This document shows, piece after piece, positions 27,001-30,000 of a stretch of 64,000 bases of DNA. Origin of the DNA: an uncultured bacterium (lineage in GTDB: Bacteria > Zixibacteria > MSB-5A5 > GN15 > FEB-12); assembly GCA_965372795.1 (NCBI GenBank), contig CBDVDR010000016.1:19119-83118 (forward strand). The letters are read 5' to 3'. Made by a program: the position numbers. Every line of letters starts with the position of its first letter. The first letter of the stretch is position 1.

Positions 27001-30000
27001 TACTTTTGGAGAACTACAAAAAGGTGACTGAAATCGATCCCCCCTATACCTACCAACTCCTGATGCTGTTGGATAGTCGTATAGTATCAAGGTTTCATAC
27101 AGATGATAATATCTGGAATATTGGTCATTAGTATAAGGAGGGTCAGCGTAAACAACAGCAGGTTTAATTTTATAACGCATCATTTTATTCACGAGTTCAA
27201 GTGCATCTTCATTAAAAACTCGATTGGTACTTCTCCAATCTGCCCAACCAATAGGAACCAATTCATCAATCGCATCTAACCAGTGAAGCCATACTGATTT
27301 CTTTCTTTGATTTACAAAATGCCTACAATTATTATCCTTTATTTTGAGATATTGTGCGAAATGTCCAGTTGTTGTAGAAACCTTACAAGTAGCTTGGCAA
27401 AGTGCAAGTATCCACCATCGATGTAAATCTTGATCGATAACTCTATTCTCTCTAAGAACATCAATAGAATATCTAATTGAATCTATCTCGATAGCCTGTT
27501 TTAAGCCTATATACCCACCAGCAAATGTGATAGAGAATAAACGATATGGAAACGTAGATGATTTTCTTTTGAGTCTTTTACTTTCAGACTGAAGTTTTGA
27601 GTCATTACCAACATGAGGTAGCTGGCTGTAAAAGTCTCCAAAACTCTCAGGACTTGAGGTTACCAGTTCTTCTAATTCTTGATCAATATATTTTACAAAC
27701 CTATTGTATAATTTTTCTTTATTCCTCTCAAAATTACTGTATGCTTTGTCGGCGGCTTCTATTGATGTCAAACTGATGTTCTTGGATTGAAAAAAAGCTT
27801 TTGCAACTGTAGATGCGAATACTTGAATATCATTACACCAAACTGATCTTTCAGTGCCTATTGATTCTCCAACAGCACATACTCCTGAAAATAAGTCAAG
27901 AAAAGGACCTCTCTTCAAGTTATGTGTAATTTCAGCGATTGTAGGAGCTATCCTGCGCTTAGTTCCCATGTAACTTACCGATATTGTCAATCAACCTCGC
28001 TACTCATTAAAATGGATAACTAACAACTTAATTTTATTAAAATACAAATGTAAAGGAGCTTTGTCAAGTCATCAAACCCCTCATAACGATATAGTAATAA
28101 GCAACTTAAGATTAAGTTGAAGGATTGGATGAAAAACCTACTGAGTTATATTTATTCTGACTTATAAAACCACCTATAGAATATAACAATTTACAGAATC
28201 AGATCATGAAATTTTCAACTTTAAAAATAAACACAATTAAGATTTAAAAGGCAATTGCACAATACTACTTTTTACAATAATTATTCTTACCTAATTAACA
28301 TTTTATCTGAAATGTGAGATACTTTATTTTCTTTTTTTTAGGGATGCATATAGTATAATTATGCTTTTTCACACAATTCCTTTTTCCATGTTAACTTCCC
28401 GAAGTAATCCAGGCACCACAAGCAAGGGTATGGATAGAGACAATTTTGATCCGACATGCTGCTCAACCTAACGCTTGTAAATTTAGACAATAACTCATAA
28501 TGGCGTGCAATACATTTTTCTAATCCTTCAACATTCACACTCCCCAACATCTCTTTTCCCATAATTGAGGGTTTATTTCCATTACATACATGAGACAGAT
28601 TACAGCAAAAAACTGCATTTCCCAAATGATCAATAGAGTATGATTGTTGATAAGCATTGCAATTAAATAAGGCACTATCCTCTCCCCAAGAACCCTCAAT
28701 CATTATCTCTGTCTTGATGTTTGGAATAATGTCACTTTTAATGAATAAGAAGATTTGTTTCGTTTCCTCATGAGAGGGTAAAAGATTGTTCTCCAATAAT
28801 CGTGGTGTAGGAACAAGAGTAAGAAACGAGTGTTGGTTTGCGCCTAACTTTGATCCCAAAAGAGCAATCTCTATAATCTCTTGTATATTAGCATTGGTCA
28901 CTACTGTTTTAAAGCTTAACGGCAATCCTTGAAGTCGGCTGAGATTAGCTGCGTCAATTACTTCAGAAAATGAGTCATTTCCTCTTAAAGTATTATGTGA
29001 AGTAGGTGATGCACCGTCCAAACTTAGACATATACTATCTAAGTATCTTTTTACCATTGGATTGGACAATACTGGTAATGTCCTTTGTTTGAACTGATAT
29101 CCGTTGCTCACAAAACTGAACTTCAGTTTTCTTTCTGCTAAAGCGACTAACATATCAGGCCAAGCAGGATGAAGTGTGGGCTCACCACCTGTAAGACTAA
29201 TATGAGTTATTCCAAAACTATACGCACTATCTAATATTTCTATAAAGACATCCAAAGGAAGATGTTTTCTGGGCTCCAATTTATCCCTCAGACAGTGAAT
29301 ACAATCACGGTTGCAAACATTCGTTAGATCTATAGATAAATCTGGCATATAATATAACTCTTCAACTAATAGGCTCTTTGACCGCTTCTTCTTGCTTGTC
29401 TTACTGCAGAGCTTACACGACCCGTTACAACAGCTCCTATTTTATGAAAATGCTCACCCTCCACTTCCATAATCGGCCTTGTATAAGTTATCTTCTTAGC
29501 ATTAGGTTTCGTTGTAATACTGACGCACTCTTTCTGTATCTGTGATGATAATAGATTGTGTCGCTTAAGGTCAACTATAAACCTATCAATGTCCTCCGAG
29601 ACATTTTCTATATCAATATTCTCATATCTTGCCGATACCAATGACATTACAGAAGACAATGGAATCCCATCAGTACTTTCCTTGATCAAACGCAAAATGC
29701 AGCATGCGGGGTCATTCAACCAAAAAGACTGCTTTGTTTCTAAATCAACAATTAATCCCTCGTCCTCAAGTGTCGATAAGATAATATCGCTTTTGAGGTT
29801 AATTACTTCTTTTATTCTCTCGTCCACTACGACTTACCTCCTAACCTGAACTTATATTATCCGTTCAATGAATAGTGTTAATTTCAAAGTCGTTTGAATA
29901 CAATCACTTACATTAAACATCCTTATCTTCGATAATATTATGATCTTTTTTTCGCATACTTAACAGTACGGAACTCGTTGCATGTTAGTAATATATTGAT

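Follow-up and report, generated by a model that had tools for sequence, protein, structure and literature searches.

The window analyzed here, a stretch of 64,000 nucleotides from an uncultured bacterium of the Zixibacteria, contains a pair of genes that probably forms a compact RiPP cassette. The first encodes an RRE of the PqqD type that is continued in frame by a leader and a core, and this fused precursor would be modified by the product of the second, a radical SAM enzyme of the Twitch type. The fusion is an architecture, rather than a chemical class, and the pair represents a reduced offshoot of a broad LPP-like family of RRE/kinase/peptidase/radical SAM clusters. What is apparently new is the RRE–precursor fusion within a known kind of system, together with an enzyme family for which we found no characterized member.

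Anatomy of the fused gene

The features of the pair are collected in Table 1; all coordinates are in window numbering. The initial annotation placed an RRE/PqqD domain at aa 25–93 of the first gene product, followed in frame by a leader motif. Both assignments hold, since PF05402 (PqqD) matches this segment with 31.7 bits against a Pfam cut-off of 23.4, and Y115 and P118 of the motif are conserved. The tail following the RRE domain is 55 residues long. The gene is preceded by a strong ribosome site, and the gene of the radical SAM enzyme begins 17 nt downstream on the same (−) strand.

Two other origins of the tail were rejected. Translation of a free precursor from an internal start is not compatible with the window's linker, in which no ATG, GTG or TTG occurs within the 30 codons preceding Y115, and in the relatives no start codon close to the leader is accompanied by a ribosome site. 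The joining of two genes through sequencing error was discarded because there are 33 independent full-length tails.

Table 1. Features of the gene pair in the window
Feature	Position	Strand	Basis and remarks
Shine–Dalgarno sequence AGGAGGT	29836..29842	−	8 nt upstream of the GTG start of the fused gene; sequence
RRE–leader–core fusion gene	29366..29827	−	153 aa, GTG start
RRE/PqqD domain, aa 5–98, three strands and three helices	29534..29815	−	Pfam aa 25–93; local RRE profile aa 5–98; model; Foldseek
Variable linker, aa 99–111	29495..29533	−	Alignment of relatives, codon comparison
Leader recognition motif, aa 112–123	29459..29494	−	Family consensus K-x-Y-x-K-P-x-I-x-E-E; Y115 and P118 invariant
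Variable segment, aa 124–137	29417..29458	−	Probable cleavage region
Conserved cationic Cys-free core, aa 138–153, Tyr at end	29369..29416	−	Codon comparison, tail set
Radical SAM enzyme	28359..29348	−	329 aa; CxxxCxxC at aa 12–19
Twitch-like domain with C230, C248, C309, C312 and C249	28413..28661	−	Alignment of family
C249, spare Cys, candidate H-atom donor	28602–28604	−	Alignment; comparison with EpeE

Conservation of the tail

A search with the single sequence matched only three proteins, from which it had seemed that homologues were few. That impression was misleading; profiles were required, and one built from eight fused proteins recovered 26 relatives. Together with proteins from a search of representatives at 50% identity these make a set of 35 proteins, 33 of which have the full tail. 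The exceptions in the set are two tails that are cut or short, and two without the usual core. Y115 and P118 are present in all 26 relatives, whereas S139 and G149, also thought to be invariant, are conserved in a subset only.

The cores fall into three types. That of the window (type 1, seven sequences) is S-x-A-V-x-x-A-x-x-S-G-x-R-A-Y/F. Type 2 is Ala-rich with a C-terminal A-G-F-R-G-F-R, and type 3 is short, with A-A-Y-[YFH]-G-T-H at its C-terminus. Thus the Arg-rich consensus first proposed exists in the window's type, but it is one of three rather than a single consensus. Ala, Arg, Gly and Ser predominate in the tails, and Cys is found in none of the 33 that are full length.

In four pairs of genes compared codon by codon, the linker and the middle of the tail drift, whereas in the leader and the last 16 codons the changes are synonymous and the residues stay the same. 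Between the window and locus L085, 12 of 16 core residues are the same, five of these by way of a synonymous change, against three of 17 in the linker. Such a pattern is more than chance, and is that expected of a precursor.

Fused and split forms

Searches with the enzyme returned 79 metagenome loci, of which L081–L117 and L140 were examined, and 80 genome loci, of which L001–L043, L052 and L059 were examined; the others in both sets were dropped as weak generic matches. In the six metagenome loci where the enzyme is 53–75% identical to that of the window, the fused gene lies directly upstream in four and directly downstream in one (L084), and the sixth locus is cut. Eighteen loci (L087–L104) have enzymes of 38–43% identity. 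In 13 of these (enzymes 38–41% identical) a free RRE gene is followed by that of a free peptide starting K-K-K-Y-I-[RK]-P-[DE]-I-R-E-E; at one (L087) a free precursor is seen but no RRE, two are fused and two are cut. The two fused genes are those of L090, which has a YxxP-type motif, and L103, which does not.

The tails and the free precursors are related. Alignment of their profiles with HHalign gave 94.7% (E = 5.7e-8), and 23 of the 26 fused proteins score above the best of 1040 shuffles on the free-precursor profile. The window's own tail scores −0.6 bits against 4.7 for the best shuffle, and is linked to the free precursors through its family. The fused core type A-A-Y-F-G-T-H resembles cores of free precursors from distant loci, such as A-A-F-F-G-T-F (Nitrospira, L017). 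The reservation that the tail could be a regulatory extension is weakened by this homology, and by the fact that the genome contains no second RRE and no other precursor. A few free precursors of distant loci (L005, L032, L107 and L109) contain Cys; they are possible partners of the enzyme.

In split clusters the RRE and precursor genes overlap, by 22 nt in eight of the 10 loci measured and otherwise by 34 or 4 nt, and they are always one frame apart. A single indel could therefore interconvert the split and fused states. The overlaps are A-rich, which makes programmed frameshifting conceivable in the split clusters; the heptamers are not conserved. Trees settle neither fusion nor fission as the order of events: in a quick tree of the radical SAM enzymes the fused L090/L103 clade falls outside the window clade and the split-gene clade with only 90% SH-aLRT, and the RRE tree has mostly unresolved branches.

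In the sister clusters genes for an HprK-like kinase, an S24/S26 peptidase and NTP_transf_5 are also present, which together correspond to the genes of LPP clusters (PMC13381572). The LPP set (SpI-like peptidase, HprK-like kinase, NTP transferase and transporter) is partly present at L090 and L094, and absent beside the window's pair. The initial annotation took the architecture to imply a new RiPP class. We do not find this supported, for the enzyme family occurs mostly with separate genes in LPP-like clusters, L090 is of the full type yet fused, and the fusion recurs in a cyanobacterial cluster for which no radical SAM enzyme is listed.

Several other arrangements were seen at these loci. 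Split-gene clusters with two tandem paralogous enzymes occur at L087, L091–L094, L097 and L105. Free precursors lengthened to 188–209 aa by a Pro/Thr/Arg-rich tail lie at L087:1381–2010 and L111:72–638. Just downstream in L086 (2107–3586) there is a second radical SAM/SPASM gene with two Cys/Gly/Ser-rich precursor-like ORFs of 55 and 67 aa. Viral contigs gave only generic radical SAM matches, the best with E = 3e-20 at 24% identity.

Genomic context

The genome is 98.65% complete and has one PqqD match, i.e. a single RRE, no second match to the tail and no separate precursor of the family. Thus no leader of the family other than the one in its own tail was found for this RRE. The genome also lacks NTP_transf_5 (PF14907) and a lasso B2 peptidase (PF13471, Transglut_core3), and its only HprK, on another contig, scores as canonical. 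A search of 107 other genomes of the same family did not find the fused gene. Across the phylum three of 285 genomes gave a match, two of them, apart from the window's own, being weak and lacking this tail, and the enzyme was found in none of 60 relatives. Sampling 401 genomes of one other phylum gave 12 matches in 11 genomes, none of them a fused gene, with four of the 12 loci examined.

The pair sits among island-type genes. At 19466–27990 of the window tRNA-Val and tRNA-Asp are followed by a serine recombinase (19681–21153), unknown genes and an operon of D12 adenine methyltransferase, ParB and an unknown protein of 281 aa. A search of the genome for an att repeat of the tRNA-Asp end, which would set the right end of the island, found none. 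In codon usage the two genes deviate only mildly (7th and 2nd percentiles). A promoter scan gave 15 against 11.3 ± 4.1 for shuffles, no better than these, with no terminator, and Rfam found no family besides the two tRNAs.

As had been noted, there is no protease or exporter gene with the pair; no peptidase, kinase or exporter adjoins it. Proteases encoded outside the cluster are common in RiPP systems (PMC10885120). Directly after the enzyme there is an M23 peptidase gene in three of the five window-clade loci with downstream DNA (L081:2137–2727, L083:4425–4865 and L086:838–1470), and not in L082, L084 or the window. On position this is a candidate for product release, or a chance neighbor.

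Two further features of the window may be recorded. DUF3179 is spread over two ORFs at 18290–18637 and 18728–19342 (profile positions 3–64 and 96–292), probably a broken gene. An 85-nt hairpin repeat at 30450–30533 and 32146–32230 flanks an HI0933-like gene of 51% GC and atypical codons, and part of a third copy is present at about 44896–44953, at a distance of 13 kb.

The radical SAM enzyme

A Radical_SAM domain covers aa 8–162 of the enzyme (Pfam). The original description as a radical SAM/SPASM-type enzyme is correct in its first part. SPASM is not matched in Pfam (no PF13186), and the seven-Cys SPASM motif for two auxiliary clusters is absent; there are five conserved C-terminal cysteines, in a one-cluster, Twitch-like arrangement. 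The enzyme had been reported to score below the cut-offs of peptide maturase models, and indeed it is far under the cut-off of all 25 NCBIfam radical SAM models listed of the 46 matched; the equivalog cut-offs for the mycofactocin, PQQ and WGK maturases are not reached.

The radical SAM–Twitch motif consists of a C-x(9–17)-G-x4-C hairpin and two further ligands. It is found as C230-x12-G243-x4-C248 and C309-x2-C312 in all 44 family enzymes aligned, where these five residues are invariant. C230, C248, C309 and C312 are the probable ligands of one auxiliary 4Fe–4S cluster. C249 is present in 40 of the 44, and each of the four enzymes without it is the second paralogue in a cluster with two enzymes. 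Four cluster ligands with a separable fifth cysteine would suggest that the fifth is a catalytic thiol. Cys–Cys pairs are present in other Twitch enzymes too.

The epimerase EpeE has C206, G217, C222–C223 and a later C-x2-C (PMC13012085, supplement), and its H-atom donor is Cys223. C249 occupies the position of Cys223, directly after the second auxiliary ligand. The proton donor of EpeE, Asp210, lies four positions past its first cysteine and has no conserved counterpart, the residue at +4 from C230 being variable. A profile of the C-terminal region searched against PDB sequences found no EpeE chain, only zinc fingers with E values of 0.16–0.53. The sequence match with EpeE itself (E = 5e-6) is confined to the N-terminal 85 positions. 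Kinship with viperin was considered and dropped, as the matches span only the barrel.

Predicted structures

An AlphaFold2 model of the fused protein was built on a 26-row alignment. It contains the RRE fold, with residues 111–120 ordered (mean pLDDT 83) and strand bridges at 115–116 and 120–122. Residues 125–139 and 149–153 have pLDDT values below 50, and the core is of low confidence with a helix at 140–148. The ordered leader segment and flexible core described earlier are therefore reproduced. The top Foldseek match of the RRE is the lasso TbiB1–leader complex 5v1v (E = 4.6e-5, rmsd 1.7 over 86 columns, TM 0.85 by target). The leader may occupy the α3/β3 cleft of its own RRE in cis, pairing with strand 3, or may bind in trans. 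Thus the proposal that the substrate carries its own recognition element stands in so far as a leader–core tail is fused to the RRE and the neighboring enzyme is its likely maturase; recognition in cis is a proposal.

The model of the enzyme has a pLDDT of 86, and its nearest folds are those of two peptide maturases, SuiB with Z 26.8 (rmsd 3.0 over 293 aligned residues) and SkfB with Z 24.0 (rmsd 3.4 over 274). EpeE is below both, at rank 44 among the structural neighbors (Z 17.9, rmsd 3.8, 266 aligned).

The predicted complex of the fused protein with the enzyme scores 0.51 against 0.02 for the best control, within a range (0.60 or below) in which only 18 of the 157 solved pairs of the benchmark passed, along with both of its passing mismatches; contacts agree to at least 48% between runs and the partner pLDDT is at least 67. 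Over all scores, 116 of the 157 solved pairs and two of 215 mismatched pairs passed. The prediction weakly supports the pairing, and likeness to solved RRE–radical SAM structures may contribute to the score.

A proposed mechanism and its alternatives

In the mechanism we propose, the fused protein would serve as chaperone and substrate on one chain. The YxxP leader would fold back via a linker of at least 16 residues into the cleft of its own RRE, and the occupied RRE would dock on the RRE-less radical SAM enzyme, so presenting the flexible C-terminal core. The 5′-deoxyadenosyl radical would then abstract hydrogen from a core residue, most likely from Cα. Judging from the cysteine layout, C249 would donate hydrogen from the opposite face to give D-amino acids as in EpeE, with the auxiliary cluster re-reducing the thiyl radical. 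A protease of the host encoded outside the cassette would release the product as a short, cationic peptide; alternatively, the tail might remain attached after modification.

The reaction that we favor, tentatively, is thus L-to-D epimerization, because the five C-terminal cysteines are in EpeE order, C249 corresponding to Cys223, and the cores are free of Cys. Cys-free cores rich in Ala, Ser, Val and Arg would exclude thioethers in the window's clade and are consistent with epimerization. A spliceotide-type target is X-Y-G; this candidate was dropped, as Y-G is not conserved.

Less likely, the same fused precursor would undergo oxidative cross-linking at its C-terminal aromatic residue (R151-x-Y153, either an RRR-like Arg–Tyr link or a three-residue cyclophane), or a modification of the terminal Tyr; a share of the probability falls to other chemistries. 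The top fold match SuiB is a C–C cross-linking maturase, and an Arg–Tyr link is known in the RRR peptide (PMC8326336). Moreover an aromatic residue lies within the last six positions in 31 of the 33 full tails, the window's ending R-A-Y, and in core type 3 the residue preceding G-T is always Y, F or H. Yet the three types share no single aromatic position or partner residue. In the window's type Q, L or N can substitute, one member ends M-A-Y, and Y and F interchange. An oxidative link would also require no spare invariant cysteine.

It is distinctly improbable that the tail is a pseudo-leader stabilizing or auto-inhibiting the RRE, with another peptide or protein as the true substrate. LppB, a related RRE, needs its peptide in order to be soluble (PMC13381572), so that a tethered leader could be retained for stability, and some fused relatives have little sequence beyond the leader. 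Such a role would leave unexplained the last 16 codons, which are predicted to be flexible and are conserved with synonymous changes to an extent equal to or better than the RRE, and the resemblance of the cores to those of free precursors; the genome has no further leader-bearing ORF of the family.

That the pair is a decaying remnant of a larger LPP-like cluster, carried on the island and with no product in this host, is very improbable. In favor of it, the kinase, peptidase and nucleotidyltransferase of the sister clusters are missing, the pair was not found in the 107 same-family genomes and lies near a tRNA-Asp-linked serine recombinase, and its proteins are shorter at the C-terminus or more diverged than their relatives, but both frames are intact, the ribosome site is strong, all eight cysteines are retained, and the bare pair recurs in L081–L085 without those three genes, which points to the reduced form as a maintained lineage.

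Relation to known systems

Mycofactocin (MftA/B/C) and PQQ (PqqA/D/E) also combine a precursor, a PqqD-type RRE and an RRE-less radical SAM enzyme. They differ from the fused precursor with its Twitch-type partner in having separate genes and two-cluster SPASM enzymes, and the window's enzyme reaches 57 against 265 (MftC) and 48.5 against 381 (PqqE). MftA has a C-terminal Tyr, as does the window's core. The Cys donor of a sactipeptide or ranthipeptide core is lacking in all 33 tails.

EpeE/YydG shares with the window a radical SAM enzyme with one auxiliary cluster, the order C…G-x4-C-C…C-x2-C and a small aliphatic core without Cys. The enzymes are, however, only 15–16% identical (Z about 18), the window's family has no conserved equivalent of Asp210, and EpeE is described as leader-independent and has a free precursor. 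The LPP system (LppA/B/K/S of Paenibacillus alginolyticus, PMC13381572) is similar in its discrete-type RRE, YxxP leader and linear Cys-free product. In LPP the RRE and precursor are separate genes, whereas the window's cassette has a radical SAM enzyme and none of the LPP enzymes; the main text of the LPP paper makes no mention of 'radical SAM' or 'rSAM'. The lasso B1 RREs (TbiB1, 5v1v; TfuB1-type, 6jx3) have the same fold and YxxP recognition motif (PMC12710340), but the window's pair has no cyclase-like neighbor, its genome no B2 peptidase, and its leader is tethered.

The closest concept in the sources covered is the core–enzyme fusion of borosins. In the fungal borosins (types I–III, OphMA) the core is fused to a biosynthetic protein, and bacteria have counterparts in which the two are split (PMC8429565). 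The protein to which the borosin core is joined is the catalyst itself, an N-methyltransferase, whereas in the window the core is joined to a recognition domain without catalytic function and the enzyme is encoded separately. Natural RRE–precursor fusions were not found described in the open literature covered, which included parts of PMC12710340, PMC7470986, PMC13381572, PMC5682303, PMC8326336, PMC13012085, PMC10885120 and PMC8429565; subscription journals, which carry much RiPP work, lie outside this scope. The two RRE surveys (PMC7470986 and PMC12710340) had been cited as listing no such fusion, and this is so for the parts covered, including the 59 model names in part 1 of 2 of the supplement to PMC12710340.

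How general are RREs with leader tails?

A search of representatives at 50% identity gave 117 matches, 41 of which are an RRE with a tail of 25–110 residues. The motif [YWF]xxPx[ILVMF] occurs in 34 of the 41, a share biased upward by the presence of the motif in the query, and in 32 of these it lies 16–28 residues past the domain; shuffles gave 2.3 (maximum 8). Among the distant tailed RREs it is found in 17 of 24. By this measure RRE proteins with a leader tail appear to be widespread. According to PMC12710340, 21% of PF05402 proteins exceed the size of a discrete RRE and have no other domain. Given the frequency of the motif in tailed RREs, part of this oversized pool may be disguised substrates.

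More speculatively still, self-presenting precursors of the form RRE–linker–leader–core could be general and overlooked, occurring in several unrelated pathways and explaining part of the oversized, precursor-less PqqD proteins. The window would then be the minimal two-gene version, making a cationic peptide containing D-amino acids by means of a new family of RRE-dependent Twitch epimerases that extends from Planctomycetota to Myxococcota.

Genome mining seeks a small precursor gene near an RRE, and a precursor inside the tail of the RRE itself escapes it. A single RRE–leader–core chain with a 329-aa enzyme provides compact, two-gene access to an unstudied radical SAM family, and the chain could serve as nature's own template for engineered catalysts with a fused leader. 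Should C249 be the hydrogen donor, an RRE-guided epimerase would be gained for placing D-amino acids. The second paralogues without an equivalent of C249 (in four aligned) offer a natural control for its role.

A fused-type RRE is found in a cultured organism, on the plasmid NC_019735.1 of the cyanobacterium Crinalium epipsammum, where it is annotated only as 'PqqD family protein'. It has a leader-like tail and a D-P-I-H-E-V-D core, and precedes genes for a nucleotidyltransferase, an HPr kinase and an FkbM methyltransferase (L263:5896–9298), with no radical SAM enzyme listed in the stretch examined. The D-P-I-H-E-V-D motif or its D-P start is present in five representatives. Two RRE–leader fusions (P0141 and P0162) end in a Gly-rich stretch with seven Tyr, or in C-G-S-H-Y-W-W-P-N. 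Lastly, at L251:2746–3207 and L258:3–302, near a free RRE, an enzyme-sized ORF opens with a leader-like motif Y-x-K-P-x-[IL], possibly a fusion of leader and enzyme.
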